Positions 3,330 to 23,616 of a stretch of DNA of 23,616 nt are shown piece after piece (position 1 is the stretch's first letter; every line of letters begins with the position of its first letter). Origin of the DNA: a virus. The notes beneath the pieces were generated by a model, which was not told where the DNA came from, did no database searches, and was given only the letters and a program-made list of their open reading frames with translations. A program made the position numbers and the translations under genes. Location of the stretch: the UHGV virus genome UHGV-1378242; one strand, given 5' to 3'.

Positions 3330-3406
3330 TGGCGTGGCATGCAGGATTCGAACCTGCGACCAACCGCTTAGAAGGCGGTTGCTCTGTCCAACTGAGCTAA
3401 TGCCAC
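3330..3406 (-). tRNA. tRNA-Arg (anticodon UCU, reads AGA), phage-borne argU-like
   Basis: Minus-strand 77 nt: GTGGCAT-TA-GCTC-AGTTGG-AC-AGAGC-A-ACCGC-CTTCTAA-GCGGT-TGGTC-GCAGG-TTCGAAT-CCTGC-ATGCCAC-G-CCA. Perfect 7-bp acceptor stem, D-loop, T-loop GGTTCGAATCC, anticodon loop CU-UCU-AA and encoded CCA. It resembles E. coli argU as I recall it, with compensatory stem changes. Confidence 0.9.
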
Positions 3407-3728: not shown

Positions 3729-3744
3729 TTACCTGAAAGGTAAT
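3729..3744. promoter_or_regulatory. Operator-like inverted repeat TTACC-TGAAA-GGTAA (16-mer TTACCTGAAAGGTAAT)
   Basis: The same 16-mer recurs at 22646-22661. It sits in the 430-bp non-coding region between the tRNA and the portal operon, next to palindrome GGTTAGTAACC (3702-3712) and direct repeat GGTAATAATTT (3739-3749, 3801-3811). Confidence 0.45.
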
Positions 3745-6029: not shown

Positions 6030-6725
6030 ATGAATTTATTTGAGCGTTTGCTGTATCGCCGTCTTTGCAATGAGCAACCAGTCGATGGTGGAGCAGCTCC
6101 GGCTGCGTCAGAACCGTCAGCGCCTGCAGGTGATAACCCTGCTCCAGTTGGTGATCCATCACAACAGGAAGGTGATAAGCCACAACCTGTTGCTGATGGC
6201 GATAAACCTGCTGATGACAAAAAGCCTGAAAACGATAAGCAGGATGAAAAAAAGGACGGCGATAAACCAGAGGGTGCGCCTGAAAAGTACGAGTTTCAGG
6301 CTGCCGAAGGCGTAGAGCTGGATACAGAAGCGTTGAAGGAATTCGAGCCGGTGGCGCGAGAACTAAACCTGACCAACGAGCAAGCGCAAAAGCTGGTTGA
6401 TGCTTATCCGAAGATTCTGGCAGGTGTGCAGCAGCGCCAGGCAGAAGCCTGGCAGAAAACAACCGAGCAGTGGGCTGCTGATGTAAAAGCTGACAAAGAA
6501 ATCGGTGGCGACAAGTTGATTTCTAACCTTAGCGCCGCACAGCGTGCGCTTGACCAGTTCGGGACACCTGAACTCAAAGAATATCTGAACACCACCGGGC
6601 TGGGTAATCACCCTGATCTGGTCAAAACGTTCGTGAAAATCGGAAAGGCGATGTCTGAAGATGGCATGGTCACCGGTAGTAATGAAGGCCAGCGTAGTGC
6701 GGCCGAAGTGCTCTATGGCAAATAA
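6030..6725 (+). CDS. Putative scaffolding protein
   Basis: About 231 aa, immediately upstream of the capsid gene. Acidic, Pro/Ala/Asp/Lys-rich low-complexity N-terminal half and a helical C-terminal half. Start taken as ATG 6030 (GGAG 5 nt upstream) rather than GTG 6024. Confidence 0.6.
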   Translation: MNLFERLLYRRLCNEQPVDGGAAPAASEPSAPAGDNPAPVGDPSQQEGDKPQPVADGDKPADDKKPENDKQDEKKDGDKPEGAPEKYEFQAAEGVELDTEALKEFEPVARELNLTNEQAQKLVDAYPKILAGVQQRQAEAWQKTTEQWAADVKADKEIGGDKLISNLSAAQRALDQFGTPELKEYLNTTGLGNHPDLVKTFVKIGKAMSEDGMVTGSNEGQRSAAEVLYGK

Positions 6726-6733
6726 GAGAGGAA

Positions 6734-7726
6734 ATGACAATGGCTGTTAAAGGCTTAACTGCGCTAACGCTGGCTGACTGGGGTAAGCGCGTCGATCCAA
6801 ACGGGAAAGTCGATAAGATTATCGAGCTTCTCGGTCAAACTAACCCGATCCTTCAGGATATGCCTTTTGTCGAAGGGAACCTTCCTACCGGACACCGAAC
6901 CACCATTCGTTCTGGTTTACCTTCAGCTACCTGGCGTTTGCTGAACTATGGCGTACAGCCAAGCAAATCAACCACAGTGCAGGTAACCGATTCCGTTGGC
7001 ATGCTGGAAACCTATGCGGAAGTCGATAAGTCACTGGCTGATCTGAACGGCAATACCGCCGAATTCCGCCTTTCTGAAGACCGCGCATTTATTGAAGCGA
7101 TGAATCAGCAGATGGCGCAGACGCTGTTTTATGGTGATTCCAGCGTTAATCCTCAGCAGTTTATGGGACTGTCCTCCCGCTATTCCAGCCTGTCTGCGGG
7201 TAATGCTCAGAACATCATTGATGCTGGTGGCACGGGTACAGATAACACCTCAATCTGGTTAGTGGTGTGGGGCGAAAACACCGTGCATGGCATCTTCCCG
7301 AAAGGGCAGAAGGCTGGCATCCAGATGGAAGATAAAGGCCAGGTGACACTGGAAGATGCTAATGGCGGCAAGTACGAAGGCTATCGCACCCATTACAAAT
7401 GGGATAACGGACTTGCTCTGCGTGACTGGCGTTATGTTGTTCGCATTGCAAACATCGATGTCAGCAATCTTTCAGAACCATCCTCTGCCGCAAATATTGC
7501 GAAGTTGATGGTTAAAGCACTGCATCGCATTCCAAACCGTGGCATGGGCCGCCCGGTGTTCTACATGAACCGCACTGTAGGCCAGGCTCTTGATCTGCAG
7601 TCTCTGGAGAAAACATCTCTGGCTATCAGCGTAAAAGAGACAGAAGGCGAGTGGTGGACTTCATTCCGTGGTGTACCAATCCGTGAAACTGATGCGCTTC
7701 TGGAAACAGAAGCCCGCGTGGTGTAA
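6734..7726 (+). CDS. Major capsid protein
   Basis: 330 aa, directly after the scaffold gene, with a strong RBS (GAGG). Assigned by position and size in the portal-scaffold-capsid order. Alternative start at ATG 6740. Confidence 0.7.
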   Translation: MTMAVKGLTALTLADWGKRVDPNGKVDKIIELLGQTNPILQDMPFVEGNLPTGHRTTIRSGLPSATWRLLNYGVQPSKSTTVQVTDSVGMLETYAEVDKSLADLNGNTAEFRLSEDRAFIEAMNQQMAQTLFYGDSSVNPQQFMGLSSRYSSLSAGNAQNIIDAGGTGTDNTSIWLVVWGENTVHGIFPKGQKAGIQMEDKGQVTLEDANGGKYEGYRTHYKWDNGLALRDWRYVVRIANIDVSNLSEPSSAANIAKLMVKALHRIPNRGMGRPVFYMNRTVGQALDLQSLEKTSLAISVKETEGEWWTSFRGVPIRETDALLETEARVV

Positions 7727-20362: not shown

Positions 20363-20911
20363 TTACTTTTCTTCAGGTTTGTTGTCTTCAGATTTCTTCT
20401 TGATGCTTGGTTTTTGTCTAAGAACGAAAATACCAGCCACTGCAACAACTGTACCGATCACTGTGCCAGCTAGAACTTCATGACCTGTTAAACCTAATAA
20501 TGTTGCACAAGCTACTGTAAAAATAGTTGCACTCAGGCCAAACCACTGCCCACGTTTATCTCTATTAATAGCCCCGTCAAGTGCCTTTTCCTCCATTTTC
20601 TGGCGGTGAGCAAACTCCTTCTCCGTCAGCTGGAAGATGCGTTCGGGGGCATCAGGTAAAATATCCTGATACCCGCGAAGCAGATAGGGGGGAGGAAGCG
20701 GACCCTGAAACGCATGGTGAGCGACAACTATCTCCTGAATTTCAGGGCGATCAAGAACTCTTGTGAAGGCATCTGGGTGTTGAATGATCTCGTTACTTAG
20801 CCCTTCCTCAACTTCCTCGAACTCAGTTTCTTCGTTATCACTTGGTTGCCCAATAGATTTTTGCATATTTGTCGAAGGACATTCCTTTAGCTTCTGGTTT
20901 TCCTCTTGCAT
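20363..20911 (-). CDS. Membrane protein (182 aa): acidic soluble N-terminal domain and two C-terminal TM helices; function unknown
   Basis: TM segments WFGLSATIFTVACATLLGL and VLAGTVIGTVVAVAGIFVL, then a Lys-rich tail. Its 5' end overlaps the upstream 108-aa gene out of frame by 74 nt, or 29 nt if Met16 at 20866 is the start. Confidence 0.6.
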   Translation of the reverse strand: MQEENQKLKECPSTNMQKSIGQPSDNEETEFEEVEEGLSNEIIQHPDAFTRVLDRPEIQEIVVAHHAFQGPLPPPYLLRGYQDILPDAPERIFQLTEKEFAHRQKMEEKALDGAINRDKRGQWFGLSATIFTVACATLLGLTGHEVLAGTVIGTVVAVAGIFVLRQKPSIKKKSEDNKPEEK

Positions 20912-21185: not shown

Positions 21186-21200
21186 TTACCAATCGGGTAA
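21186..21200. promoter_or_regulatory. Operator-like inverted repeat TTACC-AATCG-GGTAA
   Basis: Same arms as the 16-mer at 3729 and 22646. Sits 20-35 bp upstream of the 108-aa gene start. A TATAAT-like hexamer is at 21214-21219. Confidence 0.4.
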
Positions 21201-21285: not shown

Positions 21286-21996
21286 TCAGAAGAACCCTGC
21301 CTTGTCGTTGATGTACTCCGCGTGGGTCTGGATATCACGCAGGCATTTGCTCACACCGACGATGTAGCAGAACATGGTGGTCAGCTCCGCCGCCGCGCCC
21401 GATACGTCATGCCCGTCTTCCTGTAACTGGTTCAGCAAATTCATCAGCAGTGAGTTCTCCGTCAGGCCGAGAACACCCGACGGCGAGTGAATCAAACTGC
21501 GGTAGCCGGGCTTCAGCGGGGCGCTGTAGGTTTTGTTCTCTATCTTCATCGCCTGCATTACTGCTGATGCTGTGGCGTTGGCTACCTGGTCGGCAACCAT
21601 CTTTATGCGTTCTTCCTGCGGGAGCGAGTTTTTAATGTAGCTTCCGGTGCGGCGGATCTGAGGAAGAACCTCACCTGTAACCCATTTACGAAAGCGGTAG
21701 GGGATAGTGCCTGGTGTCACTGCGTCGCGGCAGCGGAGGATCAGTGTGTAGAGGCCTGACTCGGAGATAATGTTGATCTCTTTTACTCGGCTGTCAAAAA
21801 TTGCACGATGTTCATGCCCTATGTTGAACATAGACCTTTCATCATCATCCAGTTTTTCAAGTGCTTGGGTGACGTTTTGGATACGCAGCGCACTACAAAC
21901 GTCTTGGGCTACAAACCATGGTTGGCCATCGATAATGATGGAACGGATAGGGTTAACAGATTCAAATTTGAAGATGGCAGTTTGAGCATTAGCCAT
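21286..21996 (-). CDS. Bro-N family antirepressor-like protein
   Basis: N-terminal FKFESVNPIRSIIIDGQPWFVAQDVCSALRI… fits the Bro-N pattern. Start taken at ATG 21996 (GGAG 9 nt upstream) rather than GTG 22011. The C-terminal ~65 aa are homologous to the 85-aa protein at 22312..22569. Confidence 0.8.
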   Translation of the reverse strand: MANAQTAIFKFESVNPIRSIIIDGQPWFVAQDVCSALRIQNVTQALEKLDDDERSMFNIGHEHRAIFDSRVKEINIISESGLYTLILRCRDAVTPGTIPYRFRKWVTGEVLPQIRRTGSYIKNSLPQEERIKMVADQVANATASAVMQAMKIENKTYSAPLKPGYRSLIHSPSGVLGLTENSLLMNLLNQLQEDGHDVSGAAAELTTMFCYIVGVSKCLRDIQTHAEYINDKAGFF

Positions 21997-22014
21997 GGTG
22001 GTTATCTCCACTTA

Positions 22015-22028
22015 GTGATTTTAATCAC
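22015..22028. promoter_or_regulatory. Palindrome GTGATT-TT-AATCAC over the putative -10 of the Bro-N gene
   Basis: Perfect 14-bp inverted repeat 19 bp upstream of the Bro-N ATG. The minus-strand TAAAAT hexamer lies inside it. Its GTGA-N6-TCAC core loosely resembles a CRP-type site. Confidence 0.35.
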
Positions 22029-22142
22029 CACCGCAACGCCAATTACTGGTGGTGAACTGGACAAGGTTGGCGTACCGGCCTAAGTGGTACCGGCGTCCTT
22101 TCGGACCCCTGCCCAGCCCACCATAATTCGGATATAGCTGTG

Positions 22143-22164
22143 CTTAACGCATAAAAAAACCACG
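22143..22164 (-). terminator. Candidate intrinsic terminator after the 85-aa gene
   Basis: Minus strand: CCACG-CCAGA-CGTGG followed by TTTTTTT. The stem is short (5 bp). Further hairpins lie upstream at 22181-22225. Confidence 0.4.
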
Positions 22165-22263
22165 TCTGGCGTGGTATGCGCCACTTAGTAACCCGGGACG
22201 CCAATCCCGGCACTGGATTTTGCCAGTGCCCGATTACTATGGCACAAGAGGAGTGCGATGTAA

Positions 22264-22282
22264 ATTTACCGCAAAGGTAAAT
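22264..22282. promoter_or_regulatory. Inverted repeat ATTTACC-GCAAA-GGTAAAT nested in a longer hairpin
   Basis: Variant of the TTACC-N5-GGTAA motif, bracketed by the 8-bp inverted repeat AGGAGTGC…GCACTCCT (about 22244-22292). Confidence 0.4.
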
Positions 22283-22311
22283 ATAAGCACTCCTATTGGT
22301 AATTTCAAATC

Positions 22312-22569
22312 TTATCTGGTTTGTTTTCGTAATTGTTCGGCACAATAGTCGAGATGTGTTTGCAGATCCTGCATAGACATCTGTGAGCTGGTGACGTAGT
22401 TAATCAGTGCAGTCAGTTCGGCAAGTGGGCCATCGACATTAAATCCATCCTTATCGAGATCCCGGAGTAATTTCATCAAGTGCGATCCCTCCACCAGTGA
22501 CCTGACGCCTCCCGGCGTGTGAATCCTTTCGGTAAATCCGTCTTCCAGTGGATAGTGATACTGCTGCAT
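22312..22569 (-). CDS. Small LexA-controlled protein (85 aa), antirepressor-like, paralogous to the C-terminal domain of the Bro-N protein
   Basis: ATG 22569 with GGAGAA upstream; the track ORF is N-terminally over-extended. Aligns with the Bro-N C-terminus on IH-P-GV, LM-LL, AELT and QTH-Y. A LexA box lies 20-40 bp upstream. Confidence 0.6.
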   Translation of the reverse strand: MQQYHYPLEDGFTERIHTPGGVRSLVEGSHLMKLLRDLDKDGFNVDGPLAELTALINYVTSSQMSMQDLQTHLDYCAEQLRKQTR

Positions 22570-22588
22570 CTTATCTTCTCCATGCAAT

Positions 22589-22608
22589 AACTGTATATTT
22601 ATACAGTA
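22589..22608. promoter_or_regulatory. LexA (SOS) box
   Basis: AACTGTATATTTATACAGTA matches the consensus TACTGTATATATATACAGTA at 18 of 20 positions, with perfect CTGT-N8-ACAG. Positioned over the putative promoter of the minus-strand 85-aa gene, in the divergent region shared with the tailspike gene. Confidence 0.7.
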
Positions 22609-22644: not shown

Positions 22645-22661
22645 ATTACCTGAAAGGTAAT
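22645..22661. promoter_or_regulatory. Operator-like inverted repeat ATTACC-TGAAA-GGTAAT
   Basis: Contains the 16-mer TTACCTGAAAGGTAAT identical to 3729-3744. About 40 bp upstream of the LexA box. A half-site-like CAGGTAAT follows at about 22706-22713. Confidence 0.45.
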
Positions 22662-22764: not shown

Positions 22765-23616
22765 ATGACGGTCTCAACCGAAGTTGACCACAACGAATAC
22801 ACCGGTAACGGCGTTACGACATCGTTTCCGTATACTTTTCGAATTTTCAGAAAATCAGACCTGGTTGTTCAGGTGTCTGACCTGAACGGGAACGTAACAG
22901 AATTGGTTCTGGATACCGGTTATACGGTAACTGGGGCGGGCACTTATAGTGGCGGTTCTGTGGTTCTTCCGTCTCCGCTTGCTACTGGATGGCGAATTAC
23001 GATAGATCGTGTGCTTGATGTAGTGCAGGAGACAGACCTTCGCAATCAGGGAAAATTTTTCCCCGAAGTGCATGAAGATGCCTTTGACTACCTGACGATG
23101 CTGATCCAGCAATGTTTTGGGTGGTTCAGACGTGCATTGATGAAACCATCTTTGCTTGCAAAATATTACGATGCAAAGCAAAACAAAATTTCTAACCTTG
23201 CAGATCCATCATTTGAGCAGGACGCTGTAAATAATCGCTCAATGCGTAATTATGTCGATGCTGCAATCGCCGGGGTTGTTGGTGGTTTTGGTTGGTTTAT
23301 TCAGTATGGTTCTGGGGCTGTGTACCGAACGTTCCAGGATAAAATGCGTGATGCTATTAGCCCCAAAGATTTTGGAGCTGTTGGTGATGGTATAAATGAC
23401 GATTCCACTGCAATAAGCGCGTGCCTTGAAGCCTCATCTCCAGGTTATAAAATTGACGGATTAGGGCTTACTTTTAAAGTATCAACTCTTCCGGATGTCA
23501 GTCGATTTAAAAATGCTCGTTTTTTATTTGAGAGAATACCGGGCCAGCCTCTTTTTTATGCTTCTGAAGATTTTATCCAGGGAGAGTTATTTAAAATTAC
23601 AGATACACCGTGGTAC
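22765..23616 (+). CDS. Tailspike / tail fibre with predicted pectate-lyase-like beta-helix (probable polysaccharide depolymerase); 3' end outside the window
   Basis: ATG 22765 with GGAG 7 nt upstream; open to the window end, so not in the ORF track. N-terminus MTVSTEVDHNEYTGNGVTTSFPYTFRIF… looks like a podovirus particle-binding domain. KDFGAVGDGINDDSTAI is the hallmark start of a pectate-lyase-type beta-helix. Confidence 0.8.
   Translation, partial: MTVSTEVDHNEYTGNGVTTSFPYTFRIFRKSDLVVQVSDLNGNVTELVLDTGYTVTGAGTYSGGSVVLPSPLATGWRITIDRVLDVVQETDLRNQGKFFPEVHEDAFDYLTMLIQQCFGWFRRALMKPSLLAKYYDAKQNKISNLADPSFEQDAVNNRSMRNYVDAAIAGVVGGFGWFIQYGSGAVYRTFQDKMRDAISPKDFGAVGDGINDDSTAISACLEASSPGYKIDGLGLTFKVSTLPDVSRFKNARFLFERIPGQPLFYASEDFIQGELFKITDTPWY

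Follow-up and report, generated by a model that had tools for sequence, protein, structure and literature searches.

A probable C4/IsrK-type immunity RNA switch upstream of the antirepressor gene of an epsilon15-like phage

Results

The spacer upstream of the antirepressor gene

The window analysed here is a 23,616-nt stretch of the virus genome UHGV-1378242. On its minus strand it carries the antirepressor gene ant (21286..21996), whose product contains Bro-N and Ant C-terminal domains (Pfam Bro-N, E = 9.6e-20; PHROG 130 'anti-repressor Ant', E = 8e-57). Upstream of ant lies the spacer at 22029-22311, followed by an 86-aa ORF on the same strand (22312..22572; phrog_450) that is 42% identical over 74 aa to Ant residues 155-228 and is preceded by a LexA-box consensus at 22591-22606. 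The first-pass annotation, made from the sequence alone, had placed the spacer between two antirepressor genes; this holds for the downstream gene, whereas the upstream ORF is a paralogue of the Ant C-terminal domain and serves here as context, outside the RNA module. ARAGORN detected no tRNA or tmRNA in the spacer, its sole tRNA being tRNA-Arg at 3330-3406.

Every inverted repeat named in that annotation was found, with small corrections of the coordinates. These are an outer pair of arms, AGGAGTGC (22249-22256) and GCACTCCT (22287-22294), around the inner repeat ATTTACC-GCAAA-GGTAAAT (22263-22281), and three small hairpins formed by GGCACTGG (22209-22216) and CCAGTGCC (22223-22230), by CCGGGA (22193-22198) and TCCCGG (22205-22210), and by CCACG (22160-22164) and CGTGG (22170-22174). 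A T7 run had been described after the CCACG hairpin; the seven-base run indeed exists, but as A7 on the plus strand (22153-22159), with a U7 tail on the minus strand only. Likewise, the repeated word CCACTTAGT occurs exactly twice in the window, against a chance expectation of 0.07, with the first copy at 22008 as given and the second at 22181 rather than 22183. The largest structure within the spacer, an 84-nt fold at 22045-22128, was absent from the annotation.

Two tandem RNA elements on the minus strand

We searched the whole window against Rfam, and two families, isrK and C4, scored above their cut-offs (E = 9e-13 and 5e-11). Both matches are confined to the minus strand, where they follow one another just 5' of ant. 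The predicted fold of the minus-strand RNA (291 nt) has -119.2 kcal/mol (z = -5.4), a value that none of 200 shuffles reached; the plus-strand fold reaches -108.9 (z = -4.3). The earlier impression of more structure than a terminator and a promoter would need is borne out, and so is the suggestion of a small RNA, in the form of a leader of the isrK type together with a C4 antisense RNA. The Rfam scan and the covariation across relatives, both proposed as checks at the first pass, proved decisive. The alternative idea of a structured 3' UTR was not upheld, as the element is the 5' regulatory leader of ant.

The leader RNA, which falls in the isrK Hfq-binding RNA family (Rfam RF01394; 67.7 bits vs a cut-off of 50), occupies 22153..22229 on the minus strand, and the match spans all model positions 1-77, terminator included. 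As the isrK family requires, the leader has three hairpins, of which the last was called as an intrinsic terminator by the terminator scan. Hairpin 1 lies at 22209-22230, hairpin 2 at 22193-22210 and the terminator stem at 22159-22175 with its U-tract at 22153-22159, all on the minus strand, so the three small hairpins of the first-pass annotation are the two leader stem-loops and the leader terminator. Compensatory changes were observed in 5 of the 10 leader consensus pairs, and hairpins 1 and 2 both covary; by eye, an outer helix GCGCAU...AUGCGU around the terminator also covaries in relatives. The leader further overlaps the c4-a1b1 model (RF03163), which missed its cut-off at 22242..22190 (44.1 bits vs 46.7). 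This shortfall is one of model score, not of anatomy: the same bases lie in the isrK match, and the elements a1 (UUGGCGU, 22198-22204, minus strand, in the loop of hairpin 2) and b1 (CUAAGUGG, 22181-22188, minus strand) are both present.

The C4 antisense RNA (Rfam RF01695; 66 bits vs a cut-off of 45) lies at 22045..22128 on the minus strand and covers model positions 1-87 in full. Its minimum-free-energy fold is a long closing stem around two hairpins, as the family requires, and this portion alone reaches -43.1 kcal/mol (z = -4.6). It has a tRNA-like acceptor stem and a 3' tail ACCA, and alignment with the annotated P1 C4 RNA predicts a mature C4 of 22122..22048. In an alignment of 14 sequences, compensatory changes were found in 12 of the 24 C4 consensus pairs; RNAalifold performed poorly on the hairpin-2 stem, for which the Rfam alignment pairs GCCGG with CCGGU. 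Two minus-strand elements of C4 are of special interest: b' (CCACUUAG, 22080-22087) in the loop of hairpin 2, and a' (ACGCCAA, 22067-22073) in the single-stranded linker.

Promoter-like sites and a putative operator

Two tandem minus-strand promoter-like sites were found upstream of or at the start of the leader, both of them consensus matches from a scan that gave 2 sites where 2.6 were expected. The downstream site (22236..22264; TTTACA, 17-nt spacer, (TG)CATAGT) places its predicted start at about 22229, the first nucleotide of the isrK model. Its -10 hexamer is invariant in four relatives, and it stands relative to leader hairpin 1 as do the annotated P51b of P1 and the Stx-phage site TTGACG-17-TATATT. 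The upstream site (22280..22308; TTGAAA, 17-nt spacer, TATATT; 10/12 matches) lies 44 nt upstream of it, with a predicted start near 22273, and both its -35 (TTGNAA) and -10 hexamers are conserved in all four epsilon15-like relatives.

The palindrome TTACC-GCAAA-GGTAA (22266..22280, no strand), the core of the inner hairpin of the first-pass annotation, is located between or over these two sites, and the -10 hexamer of the upstream site overlaps it. This motif is present in the window in five exact copies and one copy with one mismatch, against 0.33 expected. The HTH repressor gene of the phages phiV10 and HEMP4 has a copy on either side, and further copies are dispersed through both genomes; in the phiV10 annotation, several of them lie just 5' of annotated genes. 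The TTACC-N5-GGTAA palindrome is thus probably the binding site of the phage HTH repressor. A search of the repressor of the close relative HEMP4 (ORF 6480-7064) for a Pfam peptidase domain gave no match.

The outer inverted repeat AGGAGTGC...GCACTCCT around the operator (22249..22294, no strand) corresponds in phiV10 to a perfect palindrome with arms of about 18 nt. Since its left arm, in the minus-strand sense, precedes both predicted transcription starts, the arms would be unable to pair in RNA made from these promoters. The nested palindrome had been listed among the RNA hairpins, and it is better read as a DNA operator and promoter region, because no part of it lies beyond the predicted starts and copies of its core are scattered over the genome. 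All of the listed hairpins are part of one known module on the minus strand, to which the nested palindrome would belong as DNA and not as RNA structure.

We also considered other roles for these stretches. A terminator of the upstream ORF in the nested palindrome was rejected, as neither strand has a U-tract after it and the terminator scan did not call it. An internal C4 promoter between the leader terminator and C4 (22129-22152) was likewise rejected, with only a weak TATATC that is not conserved in relatives. On the plus strand, the best promoter candidate in the palindrome, a possible driver of the tailspike gene, was TGTAAA-17-TATAAG, which scored under the scan threshold.

Complementarity and co-variation of the C4 elements and their targets

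The ant 5' leader (22006..22042, minus strand) carries the C4 targets a2 (UUGGCGU, 22036-22042) and b2 (CUAAGUGG, 22008-22015), the latter overlapping the Shine-Dalgarno sequence GGAG (22006-22009), as well as GGUGGUGA at 22025-22032, all on the minus strand. The repeated word CCACTTAG is thus accounted for: its copies mark b1 and b2, both of them targets of the C4 loop CCACUUAG, and a second triplet, a'/a1/a2 (ACGCCAA/UUGGCGU), stands beside the b set. Both kinds of pairing are short: b' is perfectly complementary over 8 nt to b1 and to b2, and a' over 7 nt to a1 and to a2. An 8-nt match was seen in 37 and 63 of 5000 target shuffles. The ant leader forms a local hairpin (-21.1 kcal/mol, z = -3.7), the apical loop of which exposes part of b2.

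The sequences of the b'/b1/b2 sets vary between phages and agree within each of them, as CCACTTAG, CCTTTTAG, CCTTTTTC, TTGAGTAG, CCGTTGAC, CCGATAAC or CACTAAC, and the a' sets likewise differ by phage and agree within it (ACGCCAA, AGACCAA, CTGCGAA, GTAGCAA and CTGTCAA). To quantify this relationship we used the longest perfect complement of the hairpin-2 loop, as an RNAduplex matrix of C4 cores against targets was uninformative, its energies being dominated by GC-rich stems. The mean complement was 8.3 nt between the C4 loop and the b2 of its own phage, vs 4.4 nt with the b2 of another phage, and in 11 of 13 rows the own-phage match strictly exceeded all others. A further set of 30 genomes gave complements to the loop of 7 nt or more at b2 in 24 cases and at b1 in 18; these are the 30 of 45 genome loci at which a simple motif search placed C4 downstream of the leader pattern, the other 15 counting as neither positives nor negatives. 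Across the 13 phages and 30 bacterial genomes, the loop is variable, b2 tracks it in most modules and b1 in the majority. The position of the b2/Shine-Dalgarno overlap is conserved across families. As read from these sequences, such co-variation of loop and target follows the logic by which the P1/P7 c4-ant system sets its specificity.

Distribution of the module

C4 was detected in all 12 related phage loci, with isrK about 100 nt upstream of it in 11; in Aaphi23, a differently named sRNA, AaHKsRNA82, takes the place of isrK. The three Rfam names isrK, c4-a1b1 and AaHKsRNA82 appear to denote pieces of one leader upstream of C4. Among 5426 complete E. coli genomes, 457 gave a match to the spacer itself, with 100% identity in several strains, including the neonatal-meningitis strain O7:K1 CE10 and the cerebrospinal-fluid isolate EC69. 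It carries no annotation in the closest phage record or in the RefSeq genomes, and the practical outcome of this analysis is an annotation fix. In several phage records, protein-coding calls are placed over these RNA genes.

Discussion

A model for control of ant and its alternatives

Sequence elements, family membership, structural covariation and loop/target co-variation form the observed basis of our interpretation, according to which the spacer is very probably a phage "immunity I" RNA switch of the C4/IsrK type on the minus strand, governing the antirepressor. With the same high confidence, we assign to it a predicted promoter with a palindrome that would bind the repressor, a short leader RNA that ends at a terminator, and an antisense RNA of the C4 family directed against the ant ribosome-binding site. 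From these elements we infer promoter activity, expression, RNase P processing, repression, the decoy role and repressor binding, which together would operate as follows. Transcription would start from one or both of the tandem sigma-70 promoters that bracket the HTH-repressor operator, and the first 77 nt would form the leader with its two stem-loops and intrinsic terminator. Terminated transcripts would yield an IsrK-like short RNA with the decoy sites a1 and b1, and read-through transcripts would contain the tRNA-like C4-type RNA, to be excised as a stable RNA of about 75 nt. By extrapolation from the P1 annotation, its 5' end would be matured by RNase P. The b' element CCACUUAG and the a' element ACGCCAA would then pair with b2 and a2 of the ant leader, and since b2 overlaps the Shine-Dalgarno sequence, we propose that C4 blocks ribosome binding. 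The antirepressor would thereby stay silent in the lysogen, and likewise on any incoming phage that shares its specificity. The leader a1/b1 may compete for the C4 sequences, either in cis or, when carried by the short RNA, in trans, and such decoy competition would set the repression threshold, as was demonstrated for IsrK in Gifsy-1. The module would in this way explain the silencing of the Bro-N antirepressor in an epsilon15-like prophage.

A further layer, which we regard as improbable, is that promoter choice gates the switch. Transcripts from the upstream promoter, or read-through from the LexA-box promoter further upstream, would gain a 15-nt 5' extension, UGUGCCAUAGUAAUC, which is predicted to fold back onto the b1 decoy region GGUUACU..GUGGCGCA; those made from the downstream promoter would begin at leader nt 1 and leave b1 unpaired. 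If true, the state of the main repressor and the SOS response would alter the titration of C4 by the leader, and two protein-level inputs would be coupled to the RNA-level immunity threshold, a layer undescribed for P1 and IsrK.

The strongest competitor of the C4 switch, itself unlikely, is a P4-like control, in which the C4/CI-like RNA pairs with the nascent a1/b1 to enforce termination in the leader, so that regulation, together with C4 autoregulation, would be mainly by premature termination rather than at the ribosome-binding site. The position of a1 and b1 directly 5' of the intrinsic terminator fits this idea, as does the by-eye covariation of the GCGCAU...AUGCGU helix, and the IsrK authors liken their locus to P4 seqA/CI/seqC. 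However, we found no alternative antiterminator pairing for C4 to disrupt, the conserved position of the b2/Shine-Dalgarno overlap argues for translational control, and in the IsrK study STnc1160, when made constitutively, did not act like a termination factor. Termination of this kind could nevertheless run alongside C4 repression of translation. Somewhat less probable still is activation of the IsrK type only, with no processed repressor RNA: the leader-ant transcript would be inactive in cis through a1:a' and b1:b' pairing, and the short leader RNA would open it in trans. That mechanism was demonstrated at the homologous Gifsy-1 locus (PMC4825925), and the leader of our phage fits the isrK model end to end, with the terminator. 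The Gifsy-1 mechanism, however, requires translation of orf45 coupled to that of the antirepressor, whereas the equivalent frame here is closed (AUG at 22124, 14 codons, UAG at 22082-22080, 84 nt before the ant AUG). Moreover, b2 and a2 at the ant ribosome-binding site are predicted by repression in trans by C4 and not required by folding in cis, the C4 part retains the P1-like acceptor stem and ACCA tail, and a stable processed RNA, STnc1160, was detected from this position in Gifsy-1 (PMC4825925).

Two other explanations we consider very improbable, to about the same degree. An ordinary intergenic region, with a terminator of the upstream ORF, a promoter of ant and other hairpins arising by chance, would account for the terminator-like and promoter-like sites, but not for two Rfam families over their cut-offs in a search of the whole window, for stems that covary, or for a three-way loop/target co-variation in more than 40 loci. 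The other possibility is a recombination or attachment site, as the first-pass annotation had suggested, a mobile-element remnant, or a small coding gene. Long palindromes can serve as recombination substrates, the 5-bp core of the operator is inverted relative to phiV10, and a mechanical ORF of 100 aa (22043..22345, minus strand) runs through the spacer, in addition to the orf45-like frame. Against this, the region is collinear in relatives, without breakpoints, a published report puts the phage attP in another part of the genome, close to the integrase gene (PMC9782041), substitutions keep base pairs and not codons, and the orf45-like frame is closed. We found no pointer to a recombination site.

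Comparison with known systems

The locus resembles the immI region of P1 and P7 in the order of its elements, namely an operator (putative here), two tandem promoters (here promoter-like sites) spaced by about 40 nt, the leader with a1/b1, C4, and a2/b2 at a ribosome-binding site followed by the antirepressor. In P1, the elements are Op51/Oc4, P51a, P51b, a1 b1, c4, a2 b2, icd and ant1/2, with the function of a1/b1 annotated as 'putative', and our searches found both c4-a1b1 and the annotated C4 in P1. The placement of the putative operator between tandem promoter-like sites parallels the annotated Oc4/Op51, P51a and P51b, with Op51 likewise between promoters. The C4 fold, a' in the linker and b' in the hairpin-2 loop are also shared, and targets that differ between phages and match within a phage are the basis of P1/P7 heteroimmunity. 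Unlike P1, the present locus lacks icd, as no icd-like ORF was found in the 48 nt between the end of the C4 match (22045) and the ant AUG (21996), and C4 would aim directly at the ant ribosome-binding site instead of at icd and translational coupling. The symmetric TTACC-N5-GGTAA also differs from the asymmetric 17-bp C1 operator of P1, and the repressors are unrelated; the genome is that of a 39-kb epsilon15-like integrating podovirus, whereas P1 is a plasmid prophage; and a second ORF with the Ant C-terminal domain and a LexA box lies just upstream.

The likeness to isrK-orf45(STnc1160)-anrP of Gifsy-1 lies in the leader, which matches isrK over 77 positions with the terminator, and an antirepressor lies downstream in both. 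There, the compensatory pairs G28-C162 and G31-C159 were proven (Hershko-Shalev et al. 2016, PMC4825925), and by position, using the nucleotide numbers published in that paper, they fall on the a1:a' pairing here. IsrK activates antirepressor translation in trans in Gifsy-1, and the C4-homologous region was read as mRNA structure and translated orf45, not as a processed repressor RNA (PMC4825925). The AUG found here at nt 106, where C4 has its 5' end, is the counterpart of the first orf45 AUG (A107); because this frame closes after 14 codons, translational coupling to ant is inapplicable in our phage. Positions, together with the fact that 11 of 12 related phage loci carry both isrK and C4, suggest to us that STnc1160/orf45 is the C4 equivalent, an equivalence that the paper does not draw. 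No Gifsy-1 record was among the 14 blastn matches of the isrK consensus to the phage collection, and the genome scan gave no Salmonella enterica locus. A 2025 review lists IsrK and c4 as unrelated items, and stating their equivalence may help readers of that literature.

The seqA-CI-seqC region of P4 offers a further parallel, with a processed, RNase P-dependent small RNA in an untranslated leader and complementary target copies upstream and downstream of it; CI, in contrast, causes premature termination of replication genes and not occlusion of an antirepressor ribosome-binding site. In the immI region of P22, too, a small RNA limits antirepressor translation, and this secondary immunity region adjoins the tailspike gene. 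The sar RNA of P22 is antisense in cis in the strict sense, its transcription crossing the ant ribosome-binding site on the opposite strand, and the Arc and Mnt proteins add a further control of ant, whereas the regulator here lies upstream on the same strand and would act through short loop complementarity, with no arc or mnt. The differences from P1 and Gifsy-1 are minor, and the known workings of such switches are unchanged by our results: the spacer module is an ordinary, hitherto unannotated member of a known family.

A C4/IsrK element in the ant spacer

The spacer between the two minus-strand ORFs (22029-22311) is an ordinary, unannotated member of the C4/IsrK immunity-I family. On the minus strand, it scored above the curated cut-offs of two Rfam models: isrK (RF01394; 22229..22153, 67.7 bits, cut-off 50) and the C4 antisense RNA (RF01695; 22128..22045, 66.0 bits, cut-off 45). 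A third, c4-a1b1 (RF03163), overlapped the isrK match on the same strand at 44.1 bits, slightly below its cut-off of 46.7. The first-pass annotation had considered a structured 3' UTR, a small RNA or a recombination site, to be checked by an Rfam scan, RNA folding and covariance analysis; the small-RNA reading proved right, and the other two found no support. Predicted folding energies were -119.2 kcal/mol (z = -5.4) for the minus-strand RNA of 291 nt and -108.9 kcal/mol (z = -4.3) for the plus strand. All of the inverted repeats described earlier are present, with GGCACTGG/CCAGTGCC forming leader hairpin 1, CCGGGA/TCCCGG leader hairpin 2, and CCACG/CGTGG plus U7 the intrinsic terminator of the leader; the T7 run noted after the last repeat is a U-tract on the minus strand only. 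The largest structure of the spacer, the C4 fold, had been overlooked, and its predicted mature form reaches -43.1 kcal/mol (z = -4.6).

C4 was found in all 12 related loci sampled (epsilon15-like phages, Stx phages, SfV, Hafnia phage yong2 and Aaphi23), with isrK about 100 nt 5' of it in 11 and the named sRNA AaHKsRNA82 at that place in Aaphi23; P1 carries c4-a1b1 together with its annotated C4. With RNAalifold, 12 of the 24 pairs in an alignment of 14 C4 sequences had compensatory changes, as did 5 of 10 pairs in 12 leaders. In the Aaphi23 locus (L012), AaHKsRNA82 (RF02900) matches 1048-1128, immediately 5' of C4, and the a1-carrying hairpin lies just 5' of AaHKsRNA82; judged from this arrangement, a third separately named sRNA family seems to belong to a C4 leader.

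Predicted pairing of C4 with its leader and with ant

The loop of C4 hairpin 2 contains b' (CCACUUAG, 22087..22080, minus strand), the perfect complement of CUAAGUGG, which occurs on the same strand both in the leader (b1, 22188..22181) and just 5' of ant (b2, 22015..22008). The repeated word CCACTTAGT of the first-pass annotation is thus explained, because it marks both targets of the C4 loop; exactly two copies are present in the 23.6-kb window (0.07 expected), one at 22008 as reported and the other at 22181 rather than 22183. The b2 segment overlaps the Shine-Dalgarno sequence GGAG (22009..22006), located 9 nt ahead of the ant AUG. Likewise on the minus strand, a' (ACGCCAA, 22073..22067), in the single-stranded linker of C4, is complementary to UUGGCGU in the loop of leader hairpin 2 (a1, 22204..22198) and 3 nt past C4 (a2, 22042..22036). 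Folded alone, the ant leader gives a hairpin of -21.1 kcal/mol (z = -3.7) with part of b2 in its apical loop, a modelled geometry that would suit a loop-loop contact with C4. Between a2 and b2, GGUGGUGA (22025-22032) complements both UCACCACC, the 3' strand of the C4 acceptor stem (22048-22055), and ACCACC (21997-22002) just 5' of the ant AUG. This pairing covaries as GUGAUGAA/UUCAUCAC in Aaphi23 and AGUGGU/ACCACU in phiV10, and GGUGGUGA could provide alternative pairing in the transcript before processing.

The b' segment varies among phages (CCACTTAG, CCTTTTAG, CCTTTTTC, TTGAGTAG, CCGTTGAC and CCGATAAC, with CACTAAC in P1), and b1 and b2 shift along with it from phage to phage; the a' set co-varies likewise (ACGCCAA, AGACCAA, CTGCGAA, GTAGCAA, and CTGTCAA in P1). 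The longest perfect complement of the C4 loop averaged 8.3 nt at b2 of its own phage versus 4.4 nt at b2 of other phages, and in 11 of 13 rows no other phage equalled the own-phage match; at b1, the corresponding figures were 6.9 and 4.0 nt. We also scanned one genome per species for the leader pattern, which yielded 45 loci, most of them from Enterobacterales and a few from elsewhere, for instance Aeromonas. A simple motif search found C4 in 30 of these. Its loop was hypervariable there, and complements of 7 nt or longer were present at b2 in 24 of the 30 loci and at b1 in 18. On these sequence comparisons, we regard the loop-target co-variation as more telling than that of the stems. In phage PPyecE_EH1910 (L008), the isrK-C4 module occurs twice in complete form (447-635 and 1103-1291, some 650 bp apart), and the two copies differ in their a'/b' specificity (CTGCGA/CCGTTGAC versus ACGCCAA/CCGATAAC).

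Predicted tandem promoters and a putative operator

A promoter-like sequence, TTTACA-17-(TG)CATAGT (22264..22236, minus strand), aligns 5' of leader hairpin 1 at the position orthologous to the annotated P51b of P1 (TTGACC-17-TATAGT) and the equivalent site of Stx phages (TTGACG-17-TATATT), and its predicted start at about 22229 is nucleotide 1 of the isrK model. A second such sequence on this strand, TTGAAA-17-TATATT (22308..22280), lies 44 nt 5' of the first; all four epsilon15-like phages retain it. The core of the palindrome (TTACC-GCAAA-GGTAA, 22266-22280) shares bases with the upstream -10 hexamer and ends 2 bases 5' of the downstream -35 hexamer; the outer arms thus straddle the predicted starts, so that no RNA from these promoters could form the outer pairing. 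The nested palindrome is best read as a DNA element, not an RNA structure.

The window contains five exact copies of TTACC-N5-GGTAA and one with a single mismatch (0.33 expected), at 573-587, 591-605, 3729-3743, 21186-21200, 22266-22280 and 22646-22660. About 14 copies each, with one mismatch allowed, occur in phiV10 and HEMP4, where some stand on both sides of the helix-turn-helix repressor gene (PF01381), with one pair between this gene and a divergent cro-like ORF and another just past its 3' end; the others are scattered across the genomes. According to the phiV10 annotation, several lie just 5' of genes, including the integrase gene, the LexA-box ORF, the lysis/oac divergent region and the early operons. 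Since the motif is dispersed, with copies flanking the repressor gene and several adjoining gene starts, we read it as a putative operator of the primary repressor, and its distribution suggests a genome-wide repressor regulon whose operators are dispersed, recalling that of P1 C1. In phiV10 the outer arms are perfectly palindromic, at about 18 nt each. With the genes in the same orientation, the 5-bp centre of the palindrome is inverted relative to phiV10 (window 22263-22281 versus 20490-20520 of its locus, L015): it reads GCAAA here and TTTGC in phiV10. One outer arm has diverged here by a 3-nt indel, a change that creates the -35 hexamer TTTACA.

Flanking genes, distribution and annotation

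Downstream of the spacer lies the 236-aa Bro-N/Ant antirepressor ORF (21996..21286, minus strand; Pfam Bro-N, E = 9.6e-20; PHROG 130 'anti-repressor Ant', E = 8e-57), and upstream an 86-aa ORF (22572..22312, minus strand), which duplicates the Ant C-terminal domain as a separate gene (42% identity). A near-consensus LexA box (CTGTATATTTATACAG, 22591-22606) is found about 19 nt 5' of the ATG of this small ORF, which may encode an SOS-inducible antirepressor directly upstream of the RNA-controlled one. The Pfam matches of the HEMP4 repressor were helix-turn-helix domains only, with no peptidase domain among them. Taken together, the LexA-box ORF, the RNA-controlled ant and a repressor without a peptidase-domain match make prophage induction via antirepressors plausible, one candidate being SOS-controlled and the other RNA-controlled.

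The window derives from an epsilon15-like phage (Uetakevirus), its spacer being 98% identical to that of Escherichia phage HEMP4 and 80% to that of phiV10. Its tailspike (22765-23616, plus strand) bears an endosialidase N-terminal extension (PF12218), and in the neonatal meningitis strain E. coli O7:K1 CE10 (L016) an identical spacer adjoins an annotated endosialidase gene; the window itself probably represents an epsilon15-like prophage specific for the K1 capsule. A tRNA-Arg gene (anticodon TCT; 3330-3406, minus strand) sits amid plus-strand genes near the 5' end of the window. Matches to the spacer occur in 457 of 5426 complete E. coli genomes; of the 12 best-matching records listed, 11 (CE10 among them) have no PGAP feature there. 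Several GenBank/RefSeq phage records annotate proteins ('hypothetical protein', 'Ash family protein', 'transcriptional regulator') over the isrK/C4 RNAs (988-1671 in locus L003, 1232-1399 in L004, 1263-1436 in L005, 1049-1708 in L008, 738-1574 in L009 and 1044-1706 in L010), which are probably over-calls or over-extended starts.

Proposed mechanism and comparison with known systems

By analogy with P1, transcripts that read through the leader terminator would serve as precursors for the release of C4 by RNase P. Aligned to the annotated P1 RNA, the mature form would lie at 22122..22048, with ACCA at its 3' end and an acceptor stem resembling that of a tRNA. C4 would then pair with a2/b2 to block ant translation, both in the prophage and in superinfecting genomes of the same specificity. 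As in Gifsy-1, the a1/b1 leader may compete for a'/b', either in cis or in trans as the terminated 77-nt RNA. That transcripts from the upstream promoter mask b1 by their 5' extension, an idea beyond the known picture, appears unlikely to us; its basis is a predicted fold and weak one-sided substitutions in Tyrion.

In Gifsy-1, IsrK supplied in trans raised antirepressor translation more than 100-fold, and the compensatory pairs G28-C162 and G31-C159 were described (PMC4825925); these correspond in position to a1:a', which here occupies nt 26-32 and 157-163 from leader nt 1. We infer, by mapping the published Gifsy-1 positions, that STnc1160/orf45 corresponds to C4. The nucleotide sequence of orf45 is conserved and its amino-acid sequence is not (PMC4825925), the pattern predicted for an RNA gene. 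The orf45 frame of Gifsy-1 starts at the AUG at the C4 5' end, and its counterpart here closes after 14 codons, with UAG inside the b' loop; this rules out translational coupling, and C4 would act on the ant ribosome-binding site itself. The putative operator with its two predicted tandem promoters parallels P1, in which Oc4/Op51 lies at P51a, with P51b 40 nt downstream. In contrast to P1, there is no icd ORF here, the distance between the C4 match and the ant AUG being only 48 nt. The loop-target co-variation follows the same specificity principle as the c4 repressors of P1 and P7, which is said to have been established by Citron and Schuster in 1990.
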